DNA from: a virus
Virus record (IMG/VR): IMGVR_UViG_3300029249_000109
Location: 47,352-111,351 of that record
Length of the DNA stretch: 64,000 nucleotides
Reading direction: 5' to 3' (one strand)
The first letter of the stretch is position 1; every line of letters begins with the position of its first letter. Shown piece after piece: positions 14,395-61,429 of the stretch. Both the position numbers and the translations under genes were made by a program. The notes under the pieces are model-generated. The model was not told the DNA's origin. It did not search any database and saw only the letters and a program-made list of their open reading frames with translations.

Positions 14395-14410
14395 AAACAG
14401 AAGAAGTAAA
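14395..14410 (+). promoter_or_regulatory. Copy of the recurring 16-bp motif AAACAGAAGAAGTAAA in the divergent intergenic hub
   Basis: Exact 16-mer. A partial inverted arm ctgttta lies at 14341-14347. Confidence 0.4.
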
Positions 14411-15980
14411 CTATCATACACCTATTATACAACAAAATCACATGATTATCAAGTGAAATTGCATATATTTTCCGGAGCGATACGTTGTTTTTTGGCGCTA
14501 CTGTGCAGTAGTGTGGCATATAGTGTCGTTTTTGTATGAAATGAGCGGCTTCTGATGCATTTTTAACGATTTTAGGACGAAATTTGACGTTTTTGATCAA
14601 AAATTGTGCGGTATTTAAACAATCAGGAAGGAGAAATTAAGCTTCAGCGGTGCGTCTACAGAGCGAAATTACGATAATAGGCGGATTTTAGTGCGTTGTG
14701 ATAGGAGGATATTTTTAACGATAGTGCGTTGTTTACCGGATTGGGCTTCGGGACGTTTTTGAGCTGCGCAGCAGTGCACGGTGGTATTTGGAAATACTAT
14801 GGCGCAAGGTGTGCTATGTGATCTTGATGGGCAGAAATAGGGGCTGCAGAGCAGTGGTTGACATGGCTGTGGGGATCAAAATAGGGGAGTGAGGTACTGC
14901 ATAGATGGATGTAGAAATGTTGTAAATGCGGTAGTGAACTCGGGAGGTTTGGGACGGGATGGGGAGATAGAACAACTAAGCCCTTCGGGCTTCGCGCGGG
15001 CTGACCCCGGATTTTCAACCTGCCCCCCCTCTTGCCCTGTCTACCATCCATTTTTTCTAGGATTCATGCGGATTTTCGGCTAATATGACCTTTTGTTAAA
15101 AGGTGGGATTAGGTAGTCCCTGAATACGAAATTTATACCTATTTATATATAGGCGACTTCCCATTCTGTTTTTGCGGACAGTGGTTTTTGCTGTTTGTGC
15201 ACTTGTTGCAAAAATAAATGAGTAGGCTATACTGTAGACACTCCAAGGGGAGCGGGAAACACCGGAACGGCACCCGCCACCCGGGGAGTAGTCGCACCTT
15301 GAAAATTGCAAAGTTTGGATTTCTCCATGTGGGCGGTTTATACCGTGCCGGGTTTCCGGTCAAGTGGTTATCCCTTGCCATTCCAAAACATGGGTTTCCC
15401 ATCTGAGCAATTAGTGCGCCCAAACCCCGATGGCCAAACATTACCGGCATAATTCCCAAGAACGTGGGAGAAGTGCGGGGGGCGGAGTACCTTGATAACT
15501 GAACAAAAGGCAGAACCTAAGATAACACCACGGGGACTGTTATGCGCAAGCATAGATTTGTAGAAAACGCCAAGGCCAGAGCTGGCGATAATAGATACAT
15601 TTCCAAAGATAGCAACGGTTGTTTGATGGCGTGGAACCGCCTAGAGGAGAAAAAAGCTCTTGTATCACCCCTACTATAAGCTAGAATAGCGGGCAAGGGT
15701 GCAAGAAAAAGAACACCATTAGTTCCAGATGGGTAAAGTGCGCCAAGACTAACTAACGCACGATGGACAGCACACGGGCTGTATAAGTCCGTGCCATAAT
15801 GGAACACGGGCAACAGTGCAATGGCCTAGAGAAAAGCACATACCCAAAAGCATATAAGCTACAAGTGTAGCTTCACATAAAAGAGACGGTCATCGGTATG
15901 CACTCTCCAAAAGCGTACCGTACCAGAGCGCTAAACAATCCGGTTTGGTGCAAGTTTTTACAAGATGAGAGGTAACTATT

Positions 15981-16832
15981 ATGCTGAAAGTTTATGCTGA
16001 CTATGATGCCATTGCTAAGGCGGGCAAGCTGAACGAACTGACCATTCCCGAACTGGTAAAGTTCTTGAATGACCAGAAAACCGTTCTGACCGCTGAGCAG
16101 TCTCAGAATGTCACCGCCACGCTCAACAAGGCAGTCGAAAATTCCAACAAGGCCGCCTGTGATGCAAAGTGTGGTGAGTTCTGCGCTATGGAGCGCGCTG
16201 AAATGTGGCGTTCTTACGCTCCTAACCCCTACTACAGTGGCGTCAAGATCACCACTGACCCCAAGAGCGGTGCTCTGTCCACCCAAGATGCCAAGATGCT
16301 CATCAAGTTCAAGGCACTGGAGAAGTATTACCAGACCCTGAACGCTGTCGAAACCAACGGCAATGGCGAACCTATGCCCAACAAGGCCGTAACTCTCTGC
16401 CATGATGGCCACTATGAGAAACTGGTCATGCTGTTCAATGGTATGCTTTCTGAAGAGACCGCAAGCGAGCTTTGCGCTGACAAGCTGACTCGTAGCTCCA
16501 AGGTAGAAGAAACCCTCAAAGATATGGGACTGGATTGTTTTGTCGGTCCTGTCAACAAAGGCAAGCGTCTTGCTCAGCTTCAGGCCATTTGGAACGCCAT
16601 GCTCCCCGAAGAACTGGCGGCCAACTGCACTGCGCTGTCTTGCGATATTAAGTATCTCAAGATTGCAGCAAACCGCGCAAAACAGGGCTCTGTCAAGGGT
16701 ATCGGCGACAAGGCCATGATTGACGAGATTGTTGTCACCATCTCTAAGGGTCTGTCTTTTGATGGCAAGGCACGTTCCTCTAAGTACGACTTTGCAAGCA
16801 AGAGCAAGTTCTTTGCCAAGGCTGAACAGTAA
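15981..16832 (+). CDS. Hypothetical protein (283 aa) with GC3-rich codon usage unlike the bulk of the genome, embedded in a long non-coding region
   Basis: ORF with gagagg about 12 nt upstream. The long antisense ORF 15873..16868 is judged a GC-rich artefact (Leu/Gly/Val-rich). Confidence 0.55.
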   Translation: MLKVYADYDAIAKAGKLNELTIPELVKFLNDQKTVLTAEQSQNVTATLNKAVENSNKAACDAKCGEFCAMERAEMWRSYAPNPYYSGVKITTDPKSGALSTQDAKMLIKFKALEKYYQTLNAVETNGNGEPMPNKAVTLCHDGHYEKLVMLFNGMLSEETASELCADKLTRSSKVEETLKDMGLDCFVGPVNKGKRLAQLQAIWNAMLPEELAANCTALSCDIKYLKIAANRAKQGSVKGIGDKAMIDEIVVTISKGLSFDGKARSSKYDFASKSKFFAKAEQ

Positions 16833-17329
16833 CACACACAGTAGTCGGACACCCTTTCGGGGTCGCACCGTTCAAAGCGGCCCCTTTCCAACGCGGTATG
16901 CGTAGCGTCTTAGAGTGTGGCGCATTTTGTACGCTCAGAAAAGAGGTTATTACTGCATTCTAAATGAAATCTAAGAAAGGAACCCGCCGTGTATGAAATC
17001 AAAAATAATAGCTAGTGTCCTGAGCATGACGTTAAACTGCTTATGTCCGCACAATGCTATGAAATAATGGACAATACCATTATATGCGGGTATACGCAGG
17101 GACAAACCATAGCATTCCACCTAAGTCCTGCACTACCAAAGGGCTGAAAAGGCAAGTGCAAAATATATAAATGGCCCTGCTTACATGCAAGTTTATGAGC
17201 GTAGCCTTGTATGTATGAAAGAGGTATGGCAACCAAAAATGCCCGCTCACCCCTGTAATCAGGATGCCTTGACGTGGCGCAGGGGCTTTAAACTAAGAGC
17301 CTGAAAGAAAAGAGAAAGGAGTTATCTCT

Positions 17330-17914
17330 GTGTATCGAAACGAAAATGGGATTGTTATCCAGTGCGTCAAACATAAAGGAATGACGTACAACGGTTGCAA
17401 AGTTCCGTATAAGGGGCTTTACGGCACGTTTAACGGCAGAGAGTTTGTCGCTGAACCGCGTTTGAATCTTGAAACAAAAGAAATGCGGCTCAAACACCGT
17501 GATTTGAAAACAAAAACTCGTTGGGACGACATTCCCGATAGAGGGATCGTGAACCACATCGTCATGGCCGCAAAAGCCGGTTGCATTCAGCTTTACAAGT
17601 GGGATACAAAAATGGCTACTTCTGATCAAAACAAAGCGAGAAAAGAATCTGAGTTTTGGCACAAAGAAGCGGCAAATCCTGATACGATTCGACGGTTCAA
17701 GTATAAATTAAAATACCAAAATGCCCCGACGACTACACATGAATACTCCGTAAGAAGCCGCATACTTTACGGAGAAACTATTGAAATGAACGGCAAAATT
17801 AAAGACATTGGTCAAGTTCAATGTTATATGGATGGAAATGGAATTGGTTCGAGATTTGATAATAGTGACCATCGCCCATTGAATCCTGGTGCTCATGTAA
17901 ATAGTGGCAAATAA
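17330..17914 (+). CDS. Hypothetical protein (GTG start)
   Basis: aaaggag lies 9 nt upstream of GTG; 194 aa. Confidence 0.5.
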   Translation: MYRNENGIVIQCVKHKGMTYNGCKVPYKGLYGTFNGREFVAEPRLNLETKEMRLKHRDLKTKTRWDDIPDRGIVNHIVMAAKAGCIQLYKWDTKMATSDQNKARKESEFWHKEAANPDTIRRFKYKLKYQNAPTTTHEYSVRSRILYGETIEMNGKIKDIGQVQCYMDGNGIGSRFDNSDHRPLNPGAHVNSGK

Positions 17915-17937
17915 TAACCAACCACAACGCCAACTCA

Positions 17938-17972
17938 AACGCCGCTAGGCTAAGTGCTGGCGTTTTCTTTTA
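17938..17972 (+). terminator. Rho-independent terminator candidate
   Basis: Stem aacgcc/ggcgtt with a 15-nt loop, then ttttcttttacctctttt. Confidence 0.5.
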
Positions 17973-18406: not shown

Positions 18407-18419
18407 AGAGGTGTAACTC

Positions 18420-27356: not shown

Positions 27357-27657
27357 TTCGAAAAGGTAGGATGAAAGGAGGGTAGAGGCGGACAGGCGTC
27401 AGGCGAGTGAGTCGAGGACCAAACGGCGTGGCCAGTGCCACGAAGCAGCGGAGATTAAGCGAACTCCGTATTCCCAGGGTCCAACTCACAAACTCGGGAC
27501 AGAAAGAGAAGTGTTTACCTGGCAAGGCAACCAAATAGGCAGGCACTAGTACCCGCCGATGCCCAGCCTCGACATCTTAAACGCCCCGTACGTAGATTAT
27601 AAAAACTTGGTAGTATATCTTTAGATCTCGATGATAGCAAAAAAGAAACAAAAAATA

Positions 27658-27736
27658 TTTACTTCTTCTGTTAATAATCACGATTGACATCTGCTCGTGG
27701 ATGTGCTAATCTAGTCGTGCAAACAGAAGAAGTAAA
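27658..27736 (+). promoter_or_regulatory. Promoter (TTGACA-17-TAATCT) bracketed by a perfect 15-bp inverted repeat of the recurring motif (TTTACTTCTTCTGTT ... AACAGAAGAAGTAAA)
   Basis: Arms at 27658-27672 and 27721-27736; -35 at 27684-27689; -10 at 27707-27712. Lies upstream of the antirepressor-like gene. Confidence 0.5.
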
Positions 27737-27752: not shown

Positions 27753-29153
27753 ATGAATGCTAAAGTAGAAAACACGTTGGTGCTGGCGGATACAAAAAAA
27801 TTCGGCACACTCGACATTCGGGTCTATGAGAATCCGGCGGTCGATCACACCAGAGTTCAGGATGATTTCTGGATGACACGTGAGCAGATCGGCTTGGCGT
27901 TGGAATATAAGAATCCTTCAATTTCGATTGGAACGATTCATAAGCGCAATGCCAAGCGTCTTGACCCGCTTTCAGGGTTAATCAATTTGATTACCCCTGG
28001 CGGAAAACAGCAAACCTACGTATATAATATGCGTGGCGTCATGGAAATCTGCCGTTACAGCACTCAGCCCAAAGCAGATGCCTTCATGGATTTCTGCTGG
28101 GATGTGATCGCCGCTCTGATGCGTGGTGAAACTGTATCACTGAAAGCCAATCAAGCTGAGCTCAAGCGGCAGGAGCGATTCGACCAGATGATTCAGACGC
28201 TGACGGAGATTCATTCCAAGATGGACGCTCTCGAAGCCGCCCGCCAGCAGGACCGCAACGCTCTCGACAATGTGCTGTTTGTCTGCAAGCAGCTGGAAAG
28301 AAAACTAAACGCAAATCAGCCGACGAAGCAGCCTGAGCAGACCACCACATCCACCACAAACGAAACCAACAAGGTTACATACAAAGGGCGTAGCGAATGG
28401 CGGACTGAGATTTATAAGCTCGGAAACTCTATCGCTCGCATGTCTGGCTCGACACTAAATGCGGTTCTGAAACAGGCTTATGATTATATCGGCCGCAACT
28501 ATGGCTGGTATTTCAAAGATGAGCGCCGGATGTATGTTGAGCGGGTTGGCTACAAAGGTGACATTAAGAACCTAAGCGGCCTGGATATCATCGAGGACAG
28601 CGAAACATGGAAGTCGATCTTTATGTCGATCATGAAGGATCGGTATGAGAACGAAAAGCATGACGCTGAGGCCCGAAAGGGGATTAAGTCGGCACTCACC
28701 AAGAAGCCGCCTATGATCCCTGCAGATATGATTCCTACTCGCCATAAATTTGAAGATTTCCCGCCTGTATTGTCTCCTGAAACTCCGGGCGGCGATGATA
28801 TCAAGGTTGTGGCAGAGGTTCAGGCGGTTGAAGTTGAAACACCGGCGGTCGAAGCTCCTGCGGTTAATGAGCCGAAAAAGGAGTCTCGTCGCTGCAATAC
28901 GAAAGTAAAAAGCATCACATTTCCAATTGTTGAGCCAATTGCCAAGAAACTAGGCGATAAGACGGTTGGATGTTGGATCACCTATGCAAAGATTTACGAC
29001 ACGATTGGCGTTGTCAAGATGGACCGAATGCGTAAAGCATATGTACGTTCTCACAATAAGCCGCCTAAGTGTACTCCTGATATCTTCCAATATTCTGACA
29101 AGAATATGAAAGTGTTTAAGGAGGCCGCAAAGATCGTGGCGGCATCAATCTAA
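27753..29153 (+). CDS. Phage antirepressor-like protein (Bro-N/ORF6N-type N-terminal domain)
   Basis: Start moved to MNAKVEN, which follows gagaaagaggaaaaa. N-terminus FGTLDIRVYENPAVDHTRVQDDFWMTREQIGLAL resembles Bro-N/KilA-N antirepressors. 466 aa. Confidence 0.55.
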   Translation: MNAKVENTLVLADTKKFGTLDIRVYENPAVDHTRVQDDFWMTREQIGLALEYKNPSISIGTIHKRNAKRLDPLSGLINLITPGGKQQTYVYNMRGVMEICRYSTQPKADAFMDFCWDVIAALMRGETVSLKANQAELKRQERFDQMIQTLTEIHSKMDALEAARQQDRNALDNVLFVCKQLERKLNANQPTKQPEQTTTSTTNETNKVTYKGRSEWRTEIYKLGNSIARMSGSTLNAVLKQAYDYIGRNYGWYFKDERRMYVERVGYKGDIKNLSGLDIIEDSETWKSIFMSIMKDRYENEKHDAEARKGIKSALTKKPPMIPADMIPTRHKFEDFPPVLSPETPGGDDIKVVAEVQAVEVETPAVEAPAVNEPKKESRRCNTKVKSITFPIVEPIAKKLGDKTVGCWITYAKIYDTIGVVKMDRMRKAYVRSHNKPPKCTPDIFQYSDKNMKVFKEAAKIVAASI

Positions 29154-29821
29154 GCTATCTACTTCCTCCATGGCCCTTGGGGCTGACAGCCGGGAAAGAC
29201 CGGCATATAACCAGGTGTGGCGAAGTTGGTATCGCGCTAGTTTTGGGAACTAGAGACCGTGGGATCGTGCCCCACCACTTGGACCATAGCACAAGGCTTT
29301 CCTTTCTCCTTGTGCAAAATTAAACGACTTGTCCTTCTCTTTTTTGCTGTGTGTTGGTTGACAATCTTTTGGACTAAGTTGCGTGGCTGAAAATGCCTGG
29401 CAGGTACGATAACCCTGCTTTTATATGGAGCCGATGGTCGTACAACAGTTCGATTCTGTTGGGTTCCAGCTAGGTTCGATGCGACAGCGTAGTGTAGTGC
29501 GAGGTCGCTGGGTGGCGCAATTCCACCGTGGATGCAATGCATTCATAACGCTCTGACCGAAAATAATAACCATGATGCAACGGGAGTAGCTACCTGCCAT
29601 AGTGAATGTGCATGGCTCTGTTATGAGTAGGCGAATATGGCACTGCCTGCGTAAGTGGCATAGATGCTCGGTGCCCAGAGTATCGGAGAGAGTATTTAAA
29701 AGGGCAGTCTTTGAGGATGGACACCAAAGGTCGTGAGGCATTAGCCGCTTTGGTTGTATCCACTGATGCTGTAAGTTGCATTTCGCAAAGTTCGTAAGTC
29801 GAATGCAATGCACTCAGCTGG

Positions 29822-29850
29822 TGTCGTTACATGGTTAAATCCTCCTCTCT
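29822..29850 (+). repeat. 29-bp direct repeat (copy 1) immediately 5' of an atypical tRNA
   Basis: tgtcgttacatggttaaatcctcctctct; the second copy at 30221-30249 differs by one base. Confidence 0.6.
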
Positions 29851-29942
29851 GGGACGTTAGCTTAGTTGGTTAAAGCTCCTGGCTCATAACCGGGTAATGA
29901 GGATAACACCTCACGGGGGTTCGAATCCCTCACGTCCCACCA
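29851..29942 (+). tRNA. tRNA with anticodon CAU (Met/Ile2-type) carrying an unusually long variable arm (about 20 nt)
   Basis: Manual fold: acceptor gggacgt/acgtccc, A73, encoded CCA, D-arm tagcttagttggttaaagc (elongator Met-like), anticodon stem cctgg/ccggg with loop ctCATaa, variable hairpin tgagg-ataaca-cctca, T-loop ttcgaat. Confidence 0.55.
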
Positions 29943-30220
29943 TTGTATAAAAATACACAAAAAATGAATAAAGAGGTGAAAACAATGAAACGATATCTTG
30001 TAGGCGTATTTACAAGTCAGTCGTATTTTAAATGGATTGATGCCCGAAGATGAGGCTAAAAACTCGCTGAGGATGCCTGGGAAAACAACAATATGAATCA
30101 TGGATGCGACGAAGAAATTTCCGAAATCTACGTTGTGGAAGACGAAGATGAGTAAAGGAGTAACCTATGAAGGAACATATTTGCGCGGTATGAGTTCGTC
30201 AGCCGTTTGCTCCTTGCCAA

Positions 30221-30249
30221 TGTCGTTACATGGTTAAATTCTCCTCTCT
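30221..30249 (+). repeat. 29-bp direct repeat (copy 2) immediately 5' of an atypical tRNA
   Basis: tgtcgttacatggttaaattctcctctct. Confidence 0.6.
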
Positions 30250-30333
30250 TATGCCGGTATCGCTCAGCGGCTAGAGCACTGGGTTTATACCCCTTGGTCC
30301 AGATAAGACAGAGGCGCGGGTTCGAGTCCTGCT
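30243..30333 (+). tRNA. tRNA-like gene with canonical acceptor, D and T arms but an aberrant anticodon region (possible UAU anticodon on a weak stem, or a 14-nt loop) and a 13-20-nt extra region
   Basis: Acceptor gccggta/taccggc, A73, encoded CCA, D-stem gctc/gagc, T-arm gcggg-ttcgagt-cctgc. Between them, ctgggtttataccccttggtccagataagacagaggc does not form a standard 5-bp stem with a 7-nt loop. Confidence 0.35.
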
Positions 30334-30375
30334 ACCGGCACCATTTTAGTAACATTTTGAAAGAAGGTATGAATC

Positions 30376-30630
30376 ATGGCAAATCTGAATATCAAAGAAA
30401 TCGTTGAATGGATGATTGAAAAAGCGAAAGATAAGGCTTCCGATAGCATCGCAGTCATTGATGAAGGAGAAATCGTTAAAGAGTTCGGAGTGGAGTCTGG
30501 ATGGCTTCAGAGCCATGGTCCAGAGATTTATCACGAGTGTGATCAGCACTCAGAAGTTTTGGACTCTTTGATTTACACTGGAAACGATAGAGATTATTGG
30601 TCTATTCAGTTTACTATTAACAAGGAGTAA
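30376..30630 (+). CDS. Hypothetical protein
   Basis: RBS gaaagaaggtatgaatc. Confidence 0.5.
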   Translation: MANLNIKEIVEWMIEKAKDKASDSIAVIDEGEIVKEFGVESGWLQSHGPEIYHECDQHSEVLDSLIYTGNDRDYWSIQFTINKE

Positions 30631-30636
30631 ATTAAA

Positions 30637-31329
30637 ATGGATGACAAATATCTCAGCATCATCACGAACTTCGGTTGCCATTACAGCTGCCCTGAGTGTA
30701 TCGTCCGCAATAACAATCTTAAGATGACGCAGACAGAAGAGTATTCTTCCTATATGCAGTTGGAGCATGTTCTGAAAAACGAATGTAATGACTGCAATTG
30801 GGTGTCTGTGTCTGGTGGCGGTGACCCACTGTATCACTGGTGGGAACATCAGGCGTGGTGGACAGGATTCTTTTCGGTGTGTAAAGAACTTGGTCGCAAG
30901 ATTGAGTTACATACGAGCTATTATGATTTTGGTCATGATGATGGAATTTTAATGTTCCCATTCGAACGGTTTGATAGAGTTGTGTATCATTTGCATTGTG
31001 CAGAGGAGCTTTACCAGATTTGTCGCCGGGGGAAAGAAATCGTTCGAGTAGTATTCGTTGTGGACGATTCTATGGACGAATACGAAGTTAGCAAGATTTC
31101 AGCTATTGTTCAAGAAAGCGACGATATCGACGAGCTTACATTCCGGCAGTATGTAGATGAAAACTACAAAGAAACCTATCATCTGCACGGCCTCATGCTG
31201 GCGGGGCATAAAAAGGCTTGGTGGTATGTAACTCAGCGCGATTACAACACCTACTATCATAACGGTAAACTGTTCACGAAGTATACCGATATCTTTGATT
31301 CTGAGGTGGTAAGTCATGAAAAAACATAA
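30637..31329 (+). CDS. Radical SAM enzyme (QueE/NrdG-like small radical SAM)
   Basis: GCHYSCPEC is the CX3CX2C signature; VSVSGGGDPL is a GGE-type SAM-binding motif. 230 aa. Confidence 0.65.
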   Translation: MDDKYLSIITNFGCHYSCPECIVRNNNLKMTQTEEYSSYMQLEHVLKNECNDCNWVSVSGGGDPLYHWWEHQAWWTGFFSVCKELGRKIELHTSYYDFGHDDGILMFPFERFDRVVYHLHCAEELYQICRRGKEIVRVVFVVDDSMDEYEVSKISAIVQESDDIDELTFRQYVDENYKETYHLHGLMLAGHKKAWWYVTQRDYNTYYHNGKLFTKYTDIFDSEVVSHEKT

Positions 31330-31540
31330 AGATTTATTGCTGGCAGTCTGCGCATCAGTTGTTTCGTTTTTGAGTCTCGATGTCATTTCTGAGAAACTTT
31401 TACGGCACATCTCACTTGTTCAAATGGCGACAGGAAGTATAAGTTCTCTTTACGGACGTGTCAGCGAGCTGGCCCTTTCGGCATCTGTAGCTCTGTCGCT
31501 TGCGATTGGAGTTGTAGTATATATTCTATTCAAAAATTAA
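31316..31540 (+). CDS. Small membrane protein
   Basis: Hydrophobic 74-aa ORF. Confidence 0.45.
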   Translation: MKKHKDLLLAVCASVVSFLSLDVISEKLLRHISLVQMATGSISSLYGRVSELALSASVALSLAIGVVVYILFKN

Positions 31541-31552
31541 AAGGAGGAACAA

Positions 31553-32464
31553 ATGAAGAAGTTCAAAAAGATTTTCGTGGTTTCGTGTGCAATTGTGATG
31601 GCGATGACCTTTACGGGGTGTACCAAGAAAGAGGTGTATACAATTGAACCTCATGAAACTGCATTTCTGATTTCACTCTCTGAGGGCGGGGGAAAACAGG
31701 CGTCCTTTGAGAGTGAGGCAATGCTCGCCGAGGCAAAGGTAGCAGCCAAGCAGGTGTATATTACTTACTCGAAGCGACATCTGTCGCCGACTGACATCAT
31801 TGGTACTTGGGTTCCGGATAATATGTTGGTCGTCGTCAATAGAACTCCTGTTACTCGTGAATGGTCCGAGGGCAAGGATAGTGGCACCAGCACTGTCAAC
31901 CAGTCCATCTCTGCCGAAAGCAAGGAGTCCATTGGCTTCTCCGTCGGTATGAACTGCTCTGCTCAGATCTACACTGAAAATGATGCAGTCAAGTTCCTGT
32001 ATTCCTACAACAACAAGCAGCTCTCCGAGATTATGGATACTGAAATCCGTGCTCGTGTTGAAGCTGACTTTGTTGAGATGTGCGCCAAGTACACCATGAA
32101 TGAGATCCTTGAGAAGAAGGCCGAGATCATGGAGTATGTTCGCAAGGATGTGACTGAGTATTTTGCAGAGCGCGGTATCACGATTACTGTCCTTGGCATG
32201 AAGGATGGCATTGAGTACGACGATGCGTCTGTTCAGGCTGCTATTAACAAGTCCTTTGTGGCCGAGCGCAATGACGAAGCGCAGGAGATTGAGAATCAGA
32301 CCAAGATTTCCAAGGCGAACGCAGAAGCCGAGGCGAATAAAATCATCTCTGAGTCTCTGACTGACCGGCTGATTCAGCAGCAGATGTATGAAAAGTGGGA
32401 TGGTAAGCTTCCTACTTATGTCGGCGGTGATGCCAGTATCCCTGTACTGAACGATATGAAGTGA
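31553..32464 (+). CDS. Lipoprotein with an SPFH/band-7 (stomatin/prohibitin/HflC-like) domain
   Basis: Lipobox AMTFTGC. SPFH-like region with coiled-coil (...NEILEKKAEIMEYVRKDVTEYFAERGITITVLGMKD...AEAEANKIISESL). Confidence 0.6.
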   Translation: MKKFKKIFVVSCAIVMAMTFTGCTKKEVYTIEPHETAFLISLSEGGGKQASFESEAMLAEAKVAAKQVYITYSKRHLSPTDIIGTWVPDNMLVVVNRTPVTREWSEGKDSGTSTVNQSISAESKESIGFSVGMNCSAQIYTENDAVKFLYSYNNKQLSEIMDTEIRARVEADFVEMCAKYTMNEILEKKAEIMEYVRKDVTEYFAERGITITVLGMKDGIEYDDASVQAAINKSFVAERNDEAQEIENQTKISKANAEAEANKIISESLTDRLIQQQMYEKWDGKLPTYVGGDASIPVLNDMK

Positions 32465-32553
32465 CCCCGTCGGGACGGAGACGTTAAACCCGTGTCCTGA
32501 GATCAACACAAGATCTAAAAACTGTGTGGCAGCTCGGAAAGACGAGCAAGTAT

Positions 32554-32636
32554 GTTTCGGTGCTGGAATCGGCAGACAGGGGAGTCTCAAAAACTTCTGC
32601 GAAAGCATGTGGGTTCAAGTCCCATCCGAAACACCA
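32554..32636 (+). tRNA. tRNA-Leu (anticodon CAA)
   Basis: Acceptor gtttcgg/ccgaaac, A73, CCA, anticodon stem ggagt/acttc with loop ctCAAaa, long variable arm, T-loop ttcaagt. Confidence 0.75.
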
Positions 32637-32756
32637 TGGGTGAGTTGCGTCGCCCAAAAATCTCCTTTTCCTCACAAATGCTTAGTGGCTCATGGGTTCC
32701 AGACATGAATCACCGTGACTGAACAAGTCGTAGCAGGTACGCAATCCTGCTTTTGA

Positions 32757-32839
32757 GCGGAAGTGGTGGAACGGCAGACACGCTGGTTTTAGGCACCAGT
32801 TCTTTACGAGTGAGGGTTCAAATCCCTTCTTCCGCACCA
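32757..32839 (+). tRNA. tRNA-Leu (anticodon UAG)
   Basis: Acceptor gcggaag/cttccgc, A73, CCA, stem ctggt/accag with loop ttTAGgc, long variable arm. Confidence 0.75.
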
Positions 32840-32911
32840 TCGAGAATGAGCATCACACATCATTCCCGTCCCTATAGCCGCTTTACCTGGTCGCAACAGG
32901 TAAGGCATTAT

Positions 32912-32983
32912 GCAACCATCGTATAGTTGGTTAGTACGTTTTGTTCTTGACAAAGAGGACGAGTTCGATTCTCGTTGGTTGCT
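32912..32983 (+). tRNA. tRNA-Lys (anticodon CUU)
   Basis: Acceptor gcaacca/tggttgc, stem ttttg/caaag with loop ttCTTga, T-arm acgag-ttcgatt-ctcgt, no encoded CCA. Confidence 0.65.
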
Positions 32984-33102
32984 CCGATGCCCGCTTATAG
33001 GGTCTCATTCCTCCTATTCGGGCTTTACCTCTTTTCTTCCTTGTTATTCCCGGCTCCATGGCACATGCTGTGGCAATAAGGCGTAGTAAGCCGGGCTCTT
33101 GT

Positions 33103-33177
33103 GCAGCGGTCGTATAACGGTTAGTACATCGTCCTTCCAAGTCGATGGCGTGGGTTCGACTCCCATTCGCTGCTCCA
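33103..33177 (+). tRNA. tRNA-Gly (anticodon UCC)
   Basis: Acceptor gcagcgg/tcgctgc, anticodon loop ctTCCaa, T-loop ttcgact, CCA. Confidence 0.65.
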
Positions 33178-33485
33178 TGGTGTGCGACGGTTTGAGACTC
33201 CTACATACAAATCCAGCCGGGTAAGTCCGTCCACAACCGGTGTAGGTAGACAGCTTTGCCCATTAGGTCTCTAACAAAATGGGGAACAGAAAATCAGTTG
33301 TTTCAGCTCGATCGGGGATTGGCCGTTCATTGGCAAACGACAGGCATCACACCGGTAAATGATGCTGAGCCAAATAAGAAGGGAAATAAGGTGCAAGCCG
33401 AGTAGCTGTCGGACGAATACTCTTCAGGTAGCCAGTAAACTGGAACGTAAAACGAATGTTGGCTGTTTCTGATTTTCTTTTATAT

Positions 33486-33561
33486 GCGACTGTAGTTCAA
33501 TTGGTAGAGCGTCGGATTTCCATTCCGAATGTTGCGGGATCGTACCCCGTCAGTCGCTCCA
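33486..33561 (+). tRNA. tRNA-Gly (anticodon UCC), second copy
   Basis: Acceptor gcgactg/cagtcgc, stem tcgga/tccga with loop ttTCCat, T-arm gcggg-atcgtac-cccgt, CCA. Confidence 0.7.
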
Positions 33562-33564
33562 TAT

Positions 33565-33650
33565 GCTACCGTGGTGGAATGGCAGACACCGGAGACTTAA
33601 AATCTCCTGTTGGCAACAACGTGCCCGTTCAAGTCGGGTCGGTAGCACCA
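33565..33650 (+). tRNA. tRNA-Leu (anticodon UAA)
   Basis: Acceptor gctaccg/cggtagc, A73, CCA, stem ggaga/tctcc with loop ctTAAaa, long variable arm tgttggcaacaacgt. Confidence 0.75.
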
Positions 33651-34866: not shown

Positions 34867-34882
34867 AAACAGAAGAAGTAAA
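34867..34882 (+). promoter_or_regulatory. Copy of the recurring 16-bp motif AAACAGAAGAAGTAAA
   Basis: Exact 16-mer, 15 nt upstream of the ATG at 34897. Confidence 0.4.
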
Positions 34883-34896: not shown

Positions 34897-35022
34897 ATGA
34901 ATATCAAGTATGTCGACGGCCACTATGAAATTGTATCGGCGGATAGTGGTCAGTTTATTCAGTCGGCCGATACATGGGACGAAGCTCTGGATGATATGAA
35001 GGAGCTACTGCAAACCGCATAA
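34897..35022 (+). CDS. Small hypothetical protein (41 aa)
   Basis: Translates to MNIKYVDGHYEIVSADSGQFIQSADTWDEALDDMKELLQTA; weak RBS. Confidence 0.35.
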   Translation: MNIKYVDGHYEIVSADSGQFIQSADTWDEALDDMKELLQTA

Positions 35023-41575: not shown

Positions 41576-42391
41576 ATGGCAGAAACCGCCAAAAAGACGG
41601 TGCAAAAAACCATTCTTTTCCCCGTTGAAGATCAGCTCGCAAAACTCATTGTTACAGAGGACGATATTGAACGAATTATTCAGCAGGCCGTTAAAAGTGC
41701 TAATGAAACGAAAAAAGCACGGAAACCTCGTCGGACGGACAGTCTTTATCTCAAGGATGGGCGCAGAAAGCCAACTCCGGCAGACCCTATCAAGTCAAAG
41801 GAAGATTTTAAGAAGATTGTTGATTACCTTGGGTCTAACGGACGTGAAGAAATCGCGTTAAGAAACAAAACGATGTTTATTCTCGGTTGTTCAATTGGCG
41901 TTCGATGTGGCGATTTGTTGAAACTTAAAACGGCTGATGTTTATTATGAGAACGCTCATGTAAAAGATCATGTTGAGCTGATCGAGCAGAAGACCGGCAA
42001 GCGAAACGTGTGTAAAATTTCTCACATGGCAAAAGAATCTTTAAGAGAATATTATCAGGCAATTGGTTTTCGAATTGACCGCGACACACTTCTTTTTCAG
42101 AGTAAGAAAGGTGGACAGCTTAACGTTAGATCGGTGAGCAACCTTTTGAAGAAAGCTGGTAAGGCGTGTGGTTTGGACATTGAGTTGTCGACTCATAGTA
42201 TGCGTAAAACTTATGCTATGGCCGCGTTACAGAGTGCCGAGGGTACAGTTGATGGCGCGAATATCTTGAATATTCTCCAAACAAAATTTAATCACAGCGA
42301 CCAGCGTATTACGATGAGATATATCAAAATGGATCAGGAAAAACTTGATGAAATCGCTGAGAATGTTTCCAACTGGTTTGAAGGAGAATGA
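41576..42391 (+). CDS. Tyrosine recombinase/integrase (XerD-like)
   Basis: GVRCGDLL (box I Arg), THSMRKTYA (HxxR) and ITMRYIKMD (catalytic Tyr region). RBS aaaggagtgaatttaa. Confidence 0.7.
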   Translation: MAETAKKTVQKTILFPVEDQLAKLIVTEDDIERIIQQAVKSANETKKARKPRRTDSLYLKDGRRKPTPADPIKSKEDFKKIVDYLGSNGREEIALRNKTMFILGCSIGVRCGDLLKLKTADVYYENAHVKDHVELIEQKTGKRNVCKISHMAKESLREYYQAIGFRIDRDTLLFQSKKGGQLNVRSVSNLLKKAGKACGLDIELSTHSMRKTYAMAALQSAEGTVDGANILNILQTKFNHSDQRITMRYIKMDQEKLDEIAENVSNWFEGE

Positions 42392-48150: not shown

Positions 48151-48303
48151 ATGAAATTTAATAAAGAAGAAATCTATAACGCACTTGATATTCTGACTTG
48201 TCAAATCCAAGAGTCTGACGAGCTCGGATGGTGTTGTAAGCAGGAACTGAAAAATGTCCTTGACGATTACTTCCGACTAATTGAAAAGGAGAATATGAAA
48301 TGA
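48151..48303 (+). CDS. Small hypothetical protein (50 aa) between the Prs-like and NAMPT-like genes
   Basis: RBS gggatgaggattgat; ATGA overlap with the downstream gene. Confidence 0.4.
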   Translation: MKFNKEEIYNALDILTCQIQESDELGWCCKQELKNVLDDYFRLIEKENMK

Positions 48304-49778
48304 TCAATATTAACCCGATGCTGCTGTGTGACTTTTACAAGACAACGCACAGTAAGCAGTTTCCGGCCGGCACTACCAAGCTGGTCAGTTACTTCACGCC
48401 TCGTATGAGTCGGTTGGATGGCGTGGATGAAGTTGTTGTGTTTGGCGTTCAGGCATTTTGCAAGGATTATCTGGTGCAGTATTTCAACGACAACTTTTTC
48501 GACGAACCAAAAGAAATGGTCGTTCCTCAGTATAAGCGATATCTGGATGCGACCATTGGTAAGGATGCTTACGATCTGAGCAAGATTGCAGCGCTACATG
48601 ATCTGGGATATCTTCCTGTTGAAATCAAGGCACTGCCAGAAGGCACTCGTTGCCCCATCCATGTGCCGTTCCTTGAGATGAGCAATACGCACCCTGATTT
48701 CGCATGGGTTCCGCAGTTCCTTGAATCCTTTATGAGCTCTGAGCTGTGGCATCCGATGATTTCTGCAACGGTCGGAACTCTGTATCGCGATATCGTGGAC
48801 AAGTATTACGATGAAACAGTGGAGGATGGCGTGCCACATGCTCGTGCTCTGGGTGATTTCAGTTTCCGTGGTCAGGAGTGTATGCAGTCGGCAGTTAAGT
48901 CAAGCGCCGGTTGGTGCTTGAGCTTTCTGAATACGGCTACTGTCCCTGCGATTCCGTATCTGGAAGAAATGTATCGTTGCAATTGTGAAGAAGAGCCCGT
49001 TGCATTCGGCGCTGTTAGTACCGAGCATAGTGTGATGTGTTCCAACTTCGCAGTCGATGGCGATGAGATCACTTTCATCCGCCGGGCGCTGACTGAGCTG
49101 TATCCCAATATGAATTTCAGCATGGTGTCTGACTCCTACGACTATTGGAATCTGGTTGATAACATTCTACCGCAGCTCAAGGATGAGATCATGGCACACA
49201 ATGGCACACTGCTGATTCGTGGCGATTCTGGCGACCCGGTCGAAATTGTTACGCAGACGGTTTATCATCTGTGGGATATCTTCGGCGGCACGGTCAACAG
49301 CAAGGGTTATAAGGTGCTCGACCCTCATGTAAAGGCTCTGTATGGCGACTCTATCACTGTGCAACGCTGTGAAAAGATTTATGCCGAGCTCAAAGCACAC
49401 GGTTTTGCCTGCAACAATGTCAGTCTTGGCGTTGGTTCTTTCTCCATGCAGTGCATCGAGCAGAATGGTCAGTTGAAGCCGTTCACTCGCGATACTTTTG
49501 GCATGGCAGTCAAGGCAACTTATGGCGTGGTCAATGGCAAGGAGATTCAGATCTTCAAGGACCCCAAGACCGACACCGATCACTTTAAGAAGAGTCTGAA
49601 GGGTATGTGTTATGTCACTAAGGATGATTCTGGAAAGCTGGTTTGTACTGATGGCCTGATGGATCACGCTGCTCATTCTGACGGAAACATGCTGCAGCCT
49701 GTATTCCGCAATGGCGCGATGATTAAAGAATACAGTTTGAAGGAAGTCCGCGACCGACTGTGGGGAGGGAAGTTCTGA
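48300..49778 (+). CDS. nadV: Nicotinamide phosphoribosyltransferase (NAMPT/NadV)-like enzyme; candidate nicotinamide-ADPR transferase
   Basis: 492 aa of NadV-like length. The N-terminus MININPMLLCDFYKTTHSKQFP resembles phage NadV proteins. Confidence 0.65.
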   Translation: MININPMLLCDFYKTTHSKQFPAGTTKLVSYFTPRMSRLDGVDEVVVFGVQAFCKDYLVQYFNDNFFDEPKEMVVPQYKRYLDATIGKDAYDLSKIAALHDLGYLPVEIKALPEGTRCPIHVPFLEMSNTHPDFAWVPQFLESFMSSELWHPMISATVGTLYRDIVDKYYDETVEDGVPHARALGDFSFRGQECMQSAVKSSAGWCLSFLNTATVPAIPYLEEMYRCNCEEEPVAFGAVSTEHSVMCSNFAVDGDEITFIRRALTELYPNMNFSMVSDSYDYWNLVDNILPQLKDEIMAHNGTLLIRGDSGDPVEIVTQTVYHLWDIFGGTVNSKGYKVLDPHVKALYGDSITVQRCEKIYAELKAHGFACNNVSLGVGSFSMQCIEQNGQLKPFTRDTFGMAVKATYGVVNGKEIQIFKDPKTDTDHFKKSLKGMCYVTKDDSGKLVCTDGLMDHAAHSDGNMLQPVFRNGAMIKEYSLKEVRDRLWGGKF

Positions 49779-52870: not shown

Positions 52871-53674
52871 ATGGGAGTTTCAAAAAATGTTTATAAAATT
52901 GCAAAAGCAAAGAAAATTTCTTTGAAAAAATTAAGCCGTATGGTTGATATGCCATACACGACTTTGTATAACGAAATAAAACGTGATACAAATGTTAAAA
53001 ATATAGTTCGAATCGCAGAAGCTCTAGAGTGTAGTGTATACACTTTATATGACGATAAAGCAACGGATGAACTGATGGACAAGTTACTTGGTAAAAAGGG
53101 CTGTGTTGAAATTTTGCCTATTAAAATGAATGATGGGAATATCAAAGACGAAGCACATCAACTGATTGATAAATATTTCATGCCAGCTAAAGCAATTATT
53201 GTAAAGGATTTTCTTAATACATACGGATTCTGGGACGCTCCGGCTTCTACCAAATATCATGGCAACCACCCCGGCGGCTTAGCTGAACACAGTCTGGCAG
53301 TTGCAAAAAATCTTTTGATGTTAACAGAGAAGCTTGGTTTGAAGTGGGATAATCCCGGGTCTCCAGTTGTTGTTGGTCTGCTACATGATGTTTGTAAAAT
53401 GGATCAATACAAGTTGATTAGCGCAGAAAATGGTTATCAGTACGCTTATACAAATGATTCAATCTACAGTCATCACGGTGAAAAATCTATTTGTATGCTG
53501 GCGAGTTGTGTCACCTTGACCCAAGAGGAAATTGCTTGTATCCGCTGGCACATGGGCGCATATGAGACCGATACAAACGAGTGGAAATATTATGGCAACG
53601 CCATTGCAAAATATCCAAATGTGCTCTGGACGCACACGGCGGACATGATGGCAAGTCATATCGAAGGAGTGTAA
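52871..53674 (+). CDS. Xre-type HTH domain fused to an HD-domain phosphohydrolase
   Basis: N-terminus LKKLSRMVDMPYTTLYNEIKRD...IVRIAEALECSV (HTH_XRE-like). C-terminus HGNHPGGLAEHSLAV...VVGLLHDVCK (H...HD motif). Confidence 0.55.
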   Translation: MGVSKNVYKIAKAKKISLKKLSRMVDMPYTTLYNEIKRDTNVKNIVRIAEALECSVYTLYDDKATDELMDKLLGKKGCVEILPIKMNDGNIKDEAHQLIDKYFMPAKAIIVKDFLNTYGFWDAPASTKYHGNHPGGLAEHSLAVAKNLLMLTEKLGLKWDNPGSPVVVGLLHDVCKMDQYKLISAENGYQYAYTNDSIYSHHGEKSICMLASCVTLTQEEIACIRWHMGAYETDTNEWKYYGNAIAKYPNVLWTHTADMMASHIEGV

Positions 53675-57130: not shown

Positions 57131-57131
57131 A

Positions 57132-57956: not shown

Positions 57957-57994
57957 TCTGCAGGCCCCTATTATAATAAGGTAGGAGGATGCAC

Positions 57995-58618: not shown

Positions 58619-58638
58619 AAACATAAAGGAGTACTATC

Positions 58639-59037: not shown

Positions 59038-59051
59038 GAAGGAGTGTTAAC

Positions 59052-59270
59052 ATGAAAGTTTATGACGCATTAACGGCTGTACTTAGGGCTGTTGAAACGA
59101 ATCATGCCAAGTTACGAGCTGAGCCAGATTCCGATGGAAATACTCATGATAAATGGGAAGCGGAAGAAGATATTCTTTGTGATTTGGAGGAGACACTTGA
59201 GGAAGCCGTTGATAAATATGAAGAAGCAATGGAGATTCGGAAAAGTTTAAGAACAGCGATTTTAAAATAA
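59052..59270 (+). CDS. Hypothetical protein
   Basis: Start after aagaaggagtgttaac. Confidence 0.45.
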   Translation: MKVYDALTAVLRAVETNHAKLRAEPDSDGNTHDKWEAEEDILCDLEETLEEAVDKYEEAMEIRKSLRTAILK

Positions 59271-59382
59271 CAACCAATCGTGCTAATAAGGCTTGATTAT
59301 TAGTGAACTGTGTGGTAAAATAACAACCAGAGAAGAACGGCCGCAGCCATCAAAACTACAATTAGTTGTACCGGAGGATGAA

Positions 59383-59709
59383 ATGGTAAAAACTTTCACT
59401 GCGGATGAGTTTTTTGAATTCATCAAAAAATTTCGCTACATAGTCATAGGAGGATCATCCGATAGAGAATCCGGCGTATATGTGGAAACAAGAACCGATA
59501 ATTTAACGCTAGTTGAACGTTTAAGGAGCAAAAGCATTCAAGCTGATTTGTTTTCAGGAGGAACAAATCAAATCCAGGCTCGATTTGCGATAACAGGGAA
59601 TACTTTCCATTGTGATTTCGAAAATGAGCTTCTGGATCAAAATCAAAATTCTTTATTGGTCCATACAGATTTGAGCGGTGTTAAGATGCCAATCATATTA
59701 TATAATTGA
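59383..59709 (+). CDS. Hypothetical protein
   Basis: Start after accggaggatgaa. Confidence 0.45.
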   Translation: MVKTFTADEFFEFIKKFRYIVIGGSSDRESGVYVETRTDNLTLVERLRSKSIQADLFSGGTNQIQARFAITGNTFHCDFENELLDQNQNSLLVHTDLSGVKMPIILYN

Positions 59710-59712
59710 ATC

Positions 59713-59766
59713 TAAACAGAAGAAATACAAAATACTATTGACTTCTACTGTTTAAGGTGGTATAAT
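59713..59766 (+). promoter_or_regulatory. Consensus promoter (TTGACT-17-TATAAT) overlapped by an inverted pair of the recurring motif (TAAACAGAAGAAA ... ACTTCTACTGTTTA)
   Basis: -35 at 59738-59743, -10 at 59761-59766. Palindromic arms at 59713-59725 and 59741-59754. Confidence 0.6.
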
Positions 59767-59807
59767 GGGACCATAGAAAACAAGCCATAAACAAGGAGGT
59801 CATAAAT

Positions 59808-60203
59808 ATGTTCGTGGCTGGAAAAAGTGTCCCGAAGATTGGCGAAATTCGATTTGGATACGTCGTAGCGAATGACGATCGAGCCGCAACACACAAGTAC
59901 GTCGGAGTGCATCCGTATCTTGTGGTATCAAACAACATCTATAACAAATGTGCTGGACAGTGCGAAGTGATTCCATTCACGACAAAAAGAATTGGAAAGC
60001 ATAATCCGGTTCATGTTGATTATAAGGTTGGAGAGGTTAGCGGTTTGGTAAAAGACTCGACTCTTGTGATTGAGGGGAGAGACACCTTATTAAATTCACA
60101 ACTCAGCGAACCAATTGGAGAATTTACCGAGGACAATTGGAATAGAGCTGTTGAAGCGATGATGGTCCAGTGTCCGCTTCTAAAAAAGAAAAATGCCAGT
60201 TGA
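59808..60203 (+). CDS. MazF/PemK-like toxin-fold protein (type II TA endoribonuclease family), apparently solitary
   Basis: PKIGEIRFGYVVANDDRAATHKYVGVHPYLVVSNNIYNK...IPFTTKR resembles PemK/MazF. No obvious antitoxin ORF upstream. Confidence 0.5.
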   Translation: MFVAGKSVPKIGEIRFGYVVANDDRAATHKYVGVHPYLVVSNNIYNKCAGQCEVIPFTTKRIGKHNPVHVDYKVGEVSGLVKDSTLVIEGRDTLLNSQLSEPIGEFTEDNWNRAVEAMMVQCPLLKKKNAS

Positions 60204-60236
60204 GCTGCTCGAATTAACATAATTTGCACAATTCCA

Positions 60237-60270
60237 TTGCAAAATTCTTCTACATAGTGTAAAATACAAT
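60237..60270 (+). promoter_or_regulatory. Promoter candidate TTGCAA-17-TAAAAT
   Basis: Upstream of the AT-rich recombinase gene. Confidence 0.45.
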
Positions 60271-60304
60271 TGAGTGATTGCGACACCGTGTAGGAGCGTA
60301 AATT

Positions 60305-61375
60305 ATGGATATTAGTCAGCAGCTTTACAACGCAGAACAGAAAAACCTTTTTATAGAAGATTACATTGTCACAACAGGAAAATCAAAGCAATGTAATGAA
60401 ATCGAGAAGAGAAAGAGGGCTGTTAAGTTTCTGCGTGGGGTATCAAGTTTCGAATACCAGCACAACAAAGACTTTTGTACGTTTAAGATTGGCAGCGAAG
60501 AAATGAGATCCGTTTATGTTGGATGGCTTAACAATTGTTCGGAATCTACGGTTCGAATTGCCATATCAATTCTTCGTCAATATGTAAAATGGTGCTATAA
60601 AAAAGAGATCATTGATTATGCAACATATGCTAGTCATGCCTTGATTTCAAAGAATTCGGAACTATATATAAAGAGCGATACGGAAATGTCAATTCCAACA
60701 AAAATCACTTCTCCAGTGTTTTTAGCACAAAATATATCAGCGATGGAGAACGAATCAAGTGTTGGAGATGATTTTGTTTTTAAAACCGAAAATGGTTACT
60801 TTAACTATTTAAACGTCTTATTTGAAGACGATAAATATACAATGCCGGCTGCCGTTATGACTTTGTTCTACTACGGATTTTCAATTGAAGAAATACGTAG
60901 TCTGTACAGAAGAGATGTCGATTCTTCTGAAAGACGCATTCGAAACGTTATAATCGAAAACGAAACGGCAATGAAGCTGATTGAACGTGCAAAAAATTTG
61001 GATTCTTATGTCATTATTAAAGAAGATGGATATAAGAGAACAGAATATTTCATGGACTCAACACGTCTGATTCGCAATACTAGCAGAGGATGTGGAATGG
61101 TTTCCGAAGACCAAAAGATACCGAAAGAGTATTGCCACAAAATGAGGCAGTATCAGCTGATGGCATCAAAAAAACTTCCTCGAAATTCGAAATATAAAAA
61201 CGTCTTCATAAAGATGCCAACCGTGCAAAAACTTAGAGATTTTTATAAAATCTATAGAGACGAGCAGGAATTAGGCATCGAAGAGGTTAGACGTCGTTTC
61301 AACAATGGAACGTATAATGTGCAATTTGACTTTTATGCATATAAGATAATGGCATCTAAAGCGCGTGATATATAA
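60305..61375 (+). CDS. Tyrosine recombinase/integrase (second one; AT-rich gene)
   Basis: LFYYGFSIEEIRSLYRRDVD (box I Arg region), CHKMRQYQL (HxxR) and C-terminal FDFYAYKIM (Tyr). Confidence 0.55.
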   Translation: MDISQQLYNAEQKNLFIEDYIVTTGKSKQCNEIEKRKRAVKFLRGVSSFEYQHNKDFCTFKIGSEEMRSVYVGWLNNCSESTVRIAISILRQYVKWCYKKEIIDYATYASHALISKNSELYIKSDTEMSIPTKITSPVFLAQNISAMENESSVGDDFVFKTENGYFNYLNVLFEDDKYTMPAAVMTLFYYGFSIEEIRSLYRRDVDSSERRIRNVIIENETAMKLIERAKNLDSYVIIKEDGYKRTEYFMDSTRLIRNTSRGCGMVSEDQKIPKEYCHKMRQYQLMASKKLPRNSKYKNVFIKMPTVQKLRDFYKIYRDEQELGIEEVRRRFNNGTYNVQFDFYAYKIMASKARDI

Positions 61376-61381
61376 TACATC

Positions 61382-61404
61382 CGGGGCGAAAGCCCCGATG
61401 TTTA
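61382..61404 (+). terminator. Hairpin terminator with a GAAA tetraloop
   Basis: cggggc-gaaa-gccccg followed by atgtttat. Confidence 0.45.
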
Positions 61405-61413
61405 TCGAATTGT

Positions 61414-61429
61414 AAACAGTAGAAGTAAA
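61414..61429 (+). promoter_or_regulatory. Copy of the recurring motif AAACAGTAGAAGTAAA
   Basis: 16 nt upstream of the SLT gene's ATG. Confidence 0.4.

Follow-up and report, generated by a model that had tools for sequence, protein, structure and literature searches.

A predicted operator of an MrpR/YopR/SroF-family repressor recurs at regulatory sites of a large human-gut phage

The closest described parallels to the system presented here come from the SPbeta-like phages of Bacillus, in which repressors with an integrase fold act on repeated operators. In SPbeta itself, about ten promoter regions carry the 15-bp element SPBRE, which is bound by MrpR in chromatin affinity precipitation sequencing (ChAP-seq) and electrophoretic mobility shift assays (EMSA), and MrpR represses those promoters (PMC10516654). 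In phi3T, SroF binds an asymmetric 26-bp box as a DNA-encircling monomer and is displaced by Sar, a small antirepressor that mimics DNA, with several specific SroF-Sar pairs being found in SPbeta-like phages (bioRxiv 10.1101/2025.11.27.690993). Our scan of SPBc2 with SPBRE showed that the element has the orientation of the genes downstream, whose start codons lie 29-97 nt beyond its start, that it precedes both yonP-yonO and the yopM-R operon, and that two copies bracket the yonX promoter with a spacing of 64 bp. Here, we describe a 16-bp motif, AAACAGWAGAAGTAAA, which recurs in a stretch of 64,000 nucleotides (hereafter the window; positions 47,352 to 111,351 of IMG/VR virus record IMGVR_UViG_3300029249_000109), and we propose that it is the operator of a repressor of the same family encoded by the phage itself at 60305-61375. 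The window comes from a large human-gut phage, for which the near matches among deposited phage records were only unannotated fecal contigs.

The motif is real and highly non-random. An approximate-match search of the window with at most two mismatches returned nine copies for 0.17 expected from 100 shuffles, none of which reached nine; with up to three mismatches, 14 matches were obtained for 1.55 expected. The nine copies start at 14331 (-), 14395 (+), 27658 (-), 27721 (+), 34867 (+), 59714 (+), 59738 (-), 61414 (+) and 61564 (+), and they fall into five regions, as an earlier sequence-only reading of the window had noticed. Eight of them are located in non-coding DNA, which represents ~14% of the window (binomial P ~1e-6). 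All sites belong to the early/regulatory region and none precedes structural genes. The motif has no internal dyad and is thus asymmetric and non-palindromic, and little is conserved outside its 16 bp except for one pyrimidine immediately on the 5' side. When viral contigs were scanned with the exact motif, the matches listed were mostly unrelated single ones.

The evidence that links this motif to one particular protein is comparative. Protein-anchored searches of viral contigs yielded ~60 related genomes of 140-150 kb from the human gut, in all of which the repressor gene is syntenic between a mazF-like gene and a gene for an SLT lytic transglycosylase. The repressor gene clusters into eight allele classes that are mutually 25-47% identical. 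Compared with the window copy, the identity is 99-100% in type 1 (the type of the window), 37% in type 2 and 25-32% in the other types, in the same genomes where MazF and SLT are 70-99% and 54-100% identical to their window counterparts, respectively. Each allele class possesses its own 11-19-bp element (type 1, AAACAGAAGAAGTAAA; type 2, AAACAKNACTTAAA) at matching places across the genome: the PhoH/YonO leader, both sides of the antirepressor promoter, the leader of a small gene, the SLT leader and, in inverted orientation, the -35 box of the repressor operon. At this last place, a type-specific inverted copy covers the -35 box and spacer of the promoter in all eight types, with the TATAAT box and the leader unchanged, and a type-specific element is likewise present at the matching place upstream of SLT in every type. 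The core of the element is invariant within each type, and bases located 5-10 nt away vary. Among the ~60 related genomes, we saw no case in which repressor class and element type were mismatched.

The exchange of the element is remarkably local. At the divergent hub from which the PhoH/YonO block is transcribed, the promoter is kept across lineages but the arms differ: PhoH relatives that are 74-80% identical carry the arms of the window, and those nearest to it in PhoH (87-97%) have TTTAAGTCCCGTTTG ... CAAACAGTACTTAAAC at the corresponding positions. For instance, one type-2 genome shares 97% identity with the window in PhoH, and its hub has type-2 arms at the same positions; the type-specific patch is only ~150 bp wide. 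The type-2 antirepressor promoter has the same geometry with the arms TTTAAGTTCTGTTT and AAACAGGACTTAAA, further elements being found there in other lineages, and type 3 uses a single hub site. Around 34867, the flanks of type 1 and type 2 are ~95% identical and only the element/leader patch has been exchanged, in agreement with metagenome contigs. As a blind test, we compared the 50 nt preceding SLT with the regions upstream of PhoH (hub) and of the antirepressor gene in all genomes; in the window, 33-47 kb separate these regions from the repressor gene. The scores of the best 14-mer match were 13.0 and 12.2 within the same repressor type versus 10.8 and 10.6 between different types, yielding a clean diagonal. 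To judge from these comparisons, recombination is what separated linked genes and it never did so for the repressor/element pair.

The product of 60305-61375 (+), a protein of 356 residues, belongs to the MrpR family according to several profile searches. The Pfam family PF22822 (MrpR_N_CB) matches it with 33 bits for a cutoff of 27 (E 9.6e-8), and it matches all ten representative alleles, with a best E-value of 2.5e-15. An exhaustive HMMER search collected 157 representative relatives, including 22 with E <= 1e-30, and full-length matches to YopR were numerous among them. A 48-sequence family profile seeded on the window protein matched the YopR/MrpR structures 8BJV, 8BJ6 and 8A0A with E-values of 8e-16 to 3e-15 (residues 7-327 against 2-306) and, weakly, the XerA recombinase, and hhalign against YopR gave a probability of 97.8% over 256 columns. 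As regards the active site, alignments place a serine at the first catalytic arginine position of the recombinases in the box-I region LFYYGFSIEEI, a position occupied by S, E, D, P, A or K across the alignments; no HxxR is kept and Y346 is invariant. This apparent absence of catalytic residues with retention of the tyrosine mirrors what was reported for MrpR (PMC10516654). On the strength of these profiles, the protein is a full-length MrpR/YopR/SroF homologue whose predicted integrase fold appears to lack an intact active site. Together with the enrichment and placement of the motif and the tight co-variation of repressor allele and element in ~60 genomes, this family membership indicates that the protein most likely uses the motif as its operator. 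The suggestion of the sequence-only reading that the motif could be an operator for a phage regulator has thereby gained strong comparative backing, with a protein that this reading had not singled out as the binder.

The sites themselves are arranged in a way that suggests how they could act. Genes of the window point leftward up to 14285 and rightward thereafter, and the hub between them contains a leftward sigma-70-type promoter (14424-14452, -; TTGATA-17-TATAAT, 11 of 12 matches) that is kept in relatives of every type. Both hub copies lie wholly downstream of this promoter (14452 to 14424), inside the PhoH leader. The exact copy at 14395-14410 (+) occupies about +8 to +23 of the leftward transcript, relative to which it is inverted, and the copy at 14331-14346 (-), with two mismatches, is co-oriented with the PhoH gene and located 45 nt before its ATG. 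The PhoH-like ATPase gene (12939-14285, -; Pfam PhoH, E 6e-37) is the first one after the hub operators. Further along the leftward block is the gene of an 852-residue YonO-like single-subunit RNA polymerase (6475-9033, -; Pfam RdRP, PF05183), for which tblastn gave matches to SPbeta yonO and to polymerases of Thomasclavelia/Enterocloster phages. The phage is therefore SPbeta-like, though distantly so, and encodes a single-subunit RNA polymerase of its own. Over ~1.4 kb next to the hub (14460-15870), substitutions show no codon periodicity, and the stretch 15230-15980 is 90-100% identical across repressor types, which exceeds the flanking genes. Neither a match to Rfam at a permissive threshold nor notable repeats were found in this conserved non-coding stretch, which may represent either an RNA gene or a site for replication or packaging. 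It is followed by an open reading frame of 283 codons (15981-16832, +) that behaves as a real gene, since 114 of the 159 substitutions in relatives fall at third codon positions; it matches no Pfam or PHROG family, and the longer open reading frame overlapping it on the minus strand (15873-16868) was rejected as spurious.

At the antirepressor gene, the copy at 27658-27673 (-; one mismatch) ends 10 nt before the -35 box of a promoter read from the sequence (27684-27712, +; TTGACA-17-TAATCT), and the exact copy at 27721-27736 (+) starts 8 nt after its -10 box, in the leader and 17 nt before the ATG. This promoter has a weak -10 box preceded by TGC and is below the threshold of our promoter scan; its positions are kept in other types as TTGACG-17-TATCAT, TTGACA-17-TATGAT and similar sequences. 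The Bro-N/Ant-like antirepressor gene that follows (27753-29153, +; Pfam Bro-N and PHROG anti-repressor Ant families) is a proposed regulated target. Beside the upstream arm, a leftward promoter-like sequence (TTGCTA-17-TATACT, 27640 to 27612) precedes a terminator-like hairpin (27557 to 27538), so that a leftward transcript of ~70 nt might originate there (27538-27640, -); this stretch is not kept in other types. The exact copy at 34867-34882 (+) is located 8 nt after a weak TTGCAA-16-TATTTT and 14 nt before the ATG of a small acidic protein of 41 residues (34897-35022, +). It resembles in its setting the exact copy at 61414-61429 (+), each being preceded by a hairpin and directly followed by a ribosome-binding site.

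The repressor operon, composed of the mazF-like and mrpR-like genes, is driven by a TTGACT-17-TATAAT promoter with an extended -10 TG (59738-59766, +; 11 of 12 matches). The copy at 59738-59753 (-; one mismatch) covers its -35 box and the first 10 nt of the spacer, and is proposed to be the autoregulatory site; it forms a 16-8-16 inverted pair with the copy at 59714-59729 (+; two mismatches), which occupies the positions 9-24 nt upstream of the -35 box. The first gene of the operon encodes a MazF/PemK-like protein (59808-60203, +; Pfam PemK_toxin, E 6e-9; PHROG 1936), and no recognisable antitoxin adjoins it. Since the lysis-lysogeny circuits of SPbeta and phi3T act on MazEF, a system of the host, a phage-borne MazF tied to the repressor is notable. 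Downstream, the copy at 61414 is inserted between a hairpin after the repressor gene and the ribosome-binding site of the SLT lytic transglycosylase gene (61446-62051, +; Pfam SLT, E 2e-15). A degenerate copy with two mismatches (61564-61579, +), a candidate site, is found inside the SLT coding region in all type-1 genomes; type 2 has no matching element at that position. The gene after SLT (62181-62822, +) encodes a protein of 213 residues that, despite its place in the regulatory/early region, matches a PHROG annotated as tail fiber protein (E 1e-48). Type-2 contigs carry a 100% identical copy, an example of how neighbouring genes have been shuffled relative to the repressor class, and the protein is listed on hundreds of public contigs. 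Compared with this layout, the sequence-only reading had correctly placed the copies at 14395, 27721, 34867 and 61414, but the hub partner that it had put at 14341 spans 14331-14346, and its third pair, given as 59713/59741, exists with slightly shifted positions (59714-59729 and 59738-59753). Its description of three inverted pairs bracketing promoters holds for 27658/27721 and fails for the hub and 59714/59738 pairs. Its distance of 15-40 nt to the start codon compares with 14-17 nt, counted from the end of the motif, at 27721, 34867 and 61414, the copies at 14331 and 59738 being 45-55 nt away.

If SPbeta and phi3T are taken as models, each asymmetric site would be clamped by a single repressor monomer, which would explain why the motif is not palindromic. 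We infer that the protein binds the motif physically and represses rather than activates, the bound copies blocking host RNA polymerase or its first steps. The copy on the -35 box of the mazF-like/mrpR-like operon would then confer negative autoregulation, and the pair around the antirepressor promoter, as well as the copies that closely follow the leftward start, would block initiation or early elongation. In this way, the antirepressor and the PhoH-to-YonO block would be kept silent, and hence polymerase-dependent late transcription too; the repressor may thus have a role in lysogeny or early-gene shut-off. Copies may also act in the short leaders that precede SLT and the gene of the 41-residue protein. 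In type 1, the starts of paired copies are 63 and 64 bp apart, or 6.0 and 6.1 turns; in type 2, the spacing is one helical turn longer at the hub (73 bp, ~7 turns) and amounts to 61 bp at the antirepressor promoter (~5.8 turns, a looser fit). Most paired copies are therefore probably displayed on roughly the same face of the helix.

A number of observations temper this proposal. On the protein side, the full-length link to YopR is transitive, through intermediate sequences: the window protein or a 10-allele profile alone reaches only the N-terminal domain of YopR (hhalign E 0.0024), this 10-allele profile has no PDB match and gives nothing with hhalign against the true integrase of the window, and the window repressor is only ~18% identical to the SPbeta protein. 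tblastn of SPbeta YopR, YopQ, YonR, AimR and YopP against the window produced no significant match, and only YopS matched the N-terminus of a helix-turn-helix (HTH)-HD fusion protein that is considered below. The AlphaFold model, whose mean confidence (pLDDT) is 47 because the homologue search gave only two proteins to align, is too poor to check the fold. On the DNA side, no acceptable promoter was found by the promoter scan before 34867, and only a moderate one before 61414 (ATGGCA-16-TATAAT, 61349-61376). Part of the co-variation seen at the mazF and SLT sites might stem from their being physically linked to the repressor gene. Finally, a scan of 185,579 reference genomes with the repressor alignment identified no relative and no host, and a search for LexA boxes within the window found none. 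A further point against the repressor as sole reader of the operator comes from its upstream neighbour. An open reading frame of 108 codons without known fold (59383-59709, +) lies just before the repressor operon, adjoins the operator-bearing promoter and co-varies as strongly as the repressor, its product being 99% identical to the window copy in type 1, 28% in type 2 and 25-39% in types 3 and 6; it could thus be the true specificity determinant or a co-factor. We nonetheless regard as unlikely that this protein reads the operator, alone or with the MrpR-like protein, with the latter not being the sole specificity determinant. The 108-codon frame is absent or replaced in types 4, 5, 7 and 8, and several types without a detected homologue still have their own element and MrpR-like allele. 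Besides, its product, a mildly acidic protein with a pI of 5.3, matches neither Pfam nor PHROG families and contains no recognisable DNA-binding domain, whereas operator binding has been demonstrated in the MrpR family. In SPbeta-like phages, moreover, the protein that co-evolves with the repressor is the antirepressor and not a DNA binder (10.1101/2025.11.27.690993). The 108-residue protein may accordingly be a cognate partner such as an antirepressor, the role of binder itself being less likely.

Other readings assign the motif to a different molecule or process. A function in RNA, as a leader element read by an RNA-binding factor or as a processing or nut-like site, would suit the co-oriented copies, which are always found in a 5' leader just before the ribosome-binding site, as well as the co-transcription of a MazF-like RNase with the co-varying repressor gene; the hub arms 14331/14395, both transcribed from the leftward promoter, could even pair at 14 of 16 positions in a long-range stem of the PhoH leader. 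Yet the two mismatches between these arms correspond to the motif's own variable positions and are uncompensated, and the arms at 27658, 59714 and 59738 are upstream of or on a -35 box, outside the transcript of the promoter that they flank, with the 59738-type copy being present in all eight types. Since the co-varying protein comes from a DNA-binding family and MazF is only moderately divergent between types, we consider a role in RNA very unlikely. The presence of a YonO homologue in the window and the orientation of several copies toward the next gene, with leaders of just 14-17 nt, could also recall a promoter or promoter element for this polymerase or for a phage sigma factor, as the sequence-only reading had put forward. 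This hypothesis is highly improbable and did not withstand the comparison of relatives, where YonO and the motif type vary independently: two type-3 genomes with an unrelated element (CACACTTTACA) have a YonO that is 91-92% identical to that of the window, and type 3 coexists with at least five YonO allele classes that are 92, 70, 64, 61 and 56% identical to that of the window. In addition, copies occur in both orientations, one sits on the -35 box of a near-consensus host-type promoter, and the sites are early/regulatory rather than in front of structural genes.

Since the repressor is of tyrosine-recombinase ancestry, its inverted sites might alternatively serve recombination, with the integrase-like protein flipping the 47-bp promoter segment or exchanging element cassettes; the inverted arms do flank a promoter at 27658/27721, and the 16-8-16 layout of 59714/59738 is like a recombinase core site. 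That the motif copies are such recombination sites is nevertheless highly unlikely. The inter-arm segment has a single orientation in all type-1 and type-2 assemblies examined, at the antirepressor promoter as well as at the hub; the alignments show other residues in place of the box-I arginine and no kept HxxR; unpaired single copies exist and type 3 uses one hub site; and the 8-bp spacer is not kept in other types. To our knowledge, 47 bp between sites is also shorter than what tyrosine recombinases such as Cre/lox are known to synapse. It is a distant prospect, which we rate as very doubtful, that the family keeps or exploits recombination in the form of a tiny invertible switch at the antirepressor promoter or of a site-directed cassette exchange that, in place of ordinary recombination and selection, would account for the precise replacement of each dispersed element in DNA that is otherwise near-identical. 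The HTH-HD fusion protein (52871-53674, +), which the sequence-only reading had named as a candidate binder, shows weak matches to Cro/C1-type HTH domains, resembles SPbeta YopS (tblastn E 3e-5) and has an HTH that is 96-99% identical in type-1 genomes. However, one type-2 genome (115044) has this HTH at 81% identity, and no match to it was found in the remaining type-2 genomes, which have the same element, nor in genomes of types 3-8, which have elements of their own; that the motif is its operator is thus extremely unlikely. The HD part is kept in all relatives (63-100%), and the restriction of the 84-residue HTH part to type 1 and one type-2 genome suggests that the fusion results from a recent domain gain or loss. 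Two further candidates were rejected as binders because they do not track the element type: genomes with a different element have a Bro-N antirepressor that is 80% identical to that of the window, and type-2 genomes share the tyrosine recombinase of 41576-42391 at 92-96% identity.

The remainder of the window adds to the portrait of this phage. The true tyrosine recombinase just mentioned (41576-42391, +) is short (Phage_integrase, E 4e-17), and a reverse transcriptase gene (39380-40615, +; RVT_1, E 2e-13) is located ~1 kb upstream of it; together they may form a diversity-generating or retron-like module, or else the recombinase may be the integrase of the phage. Some relatives are found on contigs of 0.2-1.5 Mb (L536, SCPN01001483.1, 1.52 Mb; L571, VOFB01000498.1, 575 kb; L573/L575, 229-266 kb), and such contigs extending beyond the ~150-kb genome hint at integrated prophages. 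Fourteen transfer RNA genes form two clusters (29211-33650 and 62055-63587), those for Met, Ile-tat and one Leu being unusually long (86-92 nt). Between small open reading frames of the early region, a twister ribozyme of Type-P5 (22230-22320, +) was detected with 46.5 bits for an Rfam gathering threshold of 37.6, and Pfam gave nothing on 20 early-region open reading frames (17.3-27 kb). Finally, a nicotinamide/nicotinate phosphoribosyltransferase gene (48300-49778, +; NAMPT_N and NAPRTase) represents a gene of nicotinamide adenine dinucleotide salvage.

If the proposed operator function is correct, these results extend the combination of an integrase-fold repressor and a repeated operator beyond the Bacillus SPbeta-like phages to a large family of ~150-kb uncultured human-gut phages with a YonO-type RNA polymerase. 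They provide at least eight natural repressor/operator pairs, with several aligned copies each, and 22 divergent representative clusters are public at E <= 1e-30. Such pairs constitute a material of choice for learning how a DNA-encircling fold reads sequence and which gut phages are mutually immune. They also illustrate how a dispersed regulator could change its specificity, with at least five sites over 47 kb all being replaced and the DNA a few bases away remaining near-identical.

The resemblance to SPbeta extends to many features. The repressor is a predicted full-length homologue of MrpR, and the element is in both cases asymmetric, ~15-16 bp long, repeated about ten times in promoter and leader regions, mostly co-oriented with the next gene, and present before the repressor's own operon and the operon of the YonO polymerase. 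A bracketing pair has a start-to-start distance of ~64 bp at yonX and of 63 and 64 bp here, and the two phages have in common YonO, a Bro-type antirepressor gene and a divergent control hub. In contrast, the element sequences are unrelated (SPBRE, AAAWAATATGTATATA; here, AAACAGWAGAAGTAAA) and the proteins have diverged to the ~18% identity mentioned above; the bracketing copies are direct in SPbeta and inverted here; and the repressor is co-transcribed with a MazF-like gene instead of belonging to a yopM-R type operon. Neither arbitrium genes nor LexA boxes were seen in the window, and the hosts are uncultured human-gut bacteria.

In the same vein, a monomer reading a long asymmetric box, such as SroF of phi3T, would explain the non-palindromic motif, and the co-evolving repressor/partner pairs of that system parallel the eight repressor/element types and the 108-residue protein described here. 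The box of phi3T (Phi3TRE) is nonetheless 26 bp long versus a kept core of 16-20 bp in the gut phages, and the 108-residue protein has no detectable similarity to anything, whereas the partner in phi3T is the DNA mimic Sar. The joint exchange of repressor and operators in mosaic genomes and the autoregulation on the repressor's own promoter also recall the immunity regions of lambdoid phages, with CI/Cro acting on OL/OR and the heteroimmune phages lambda, 434, 21 and P22. However, lambdoid operators are palindromes bound by HTH dimers and grouped in two clusters beside the repressor gene, unlike the asymmetric sites proposed here for an integrase-fold protein, which are scattered over at least 47 kb; with such dispersed sites, each copy must be replaced when the type changes. 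Invertible promoters (fimS and gut invertons) likewise share with our locus the inverted repeats that flank a promoter and the proximity of a tyrosine-recombinase-like protein, but the segment has only 47 bp here, no inverted form is seen in assemblies, catalytic residues appear to be missing and unpaired copies exist. The system is thus most likely of the already known MrpR-SPBRE kind, to which the present comparison of genomes adds gut phages with at least eight matched repressor/operator specificities.

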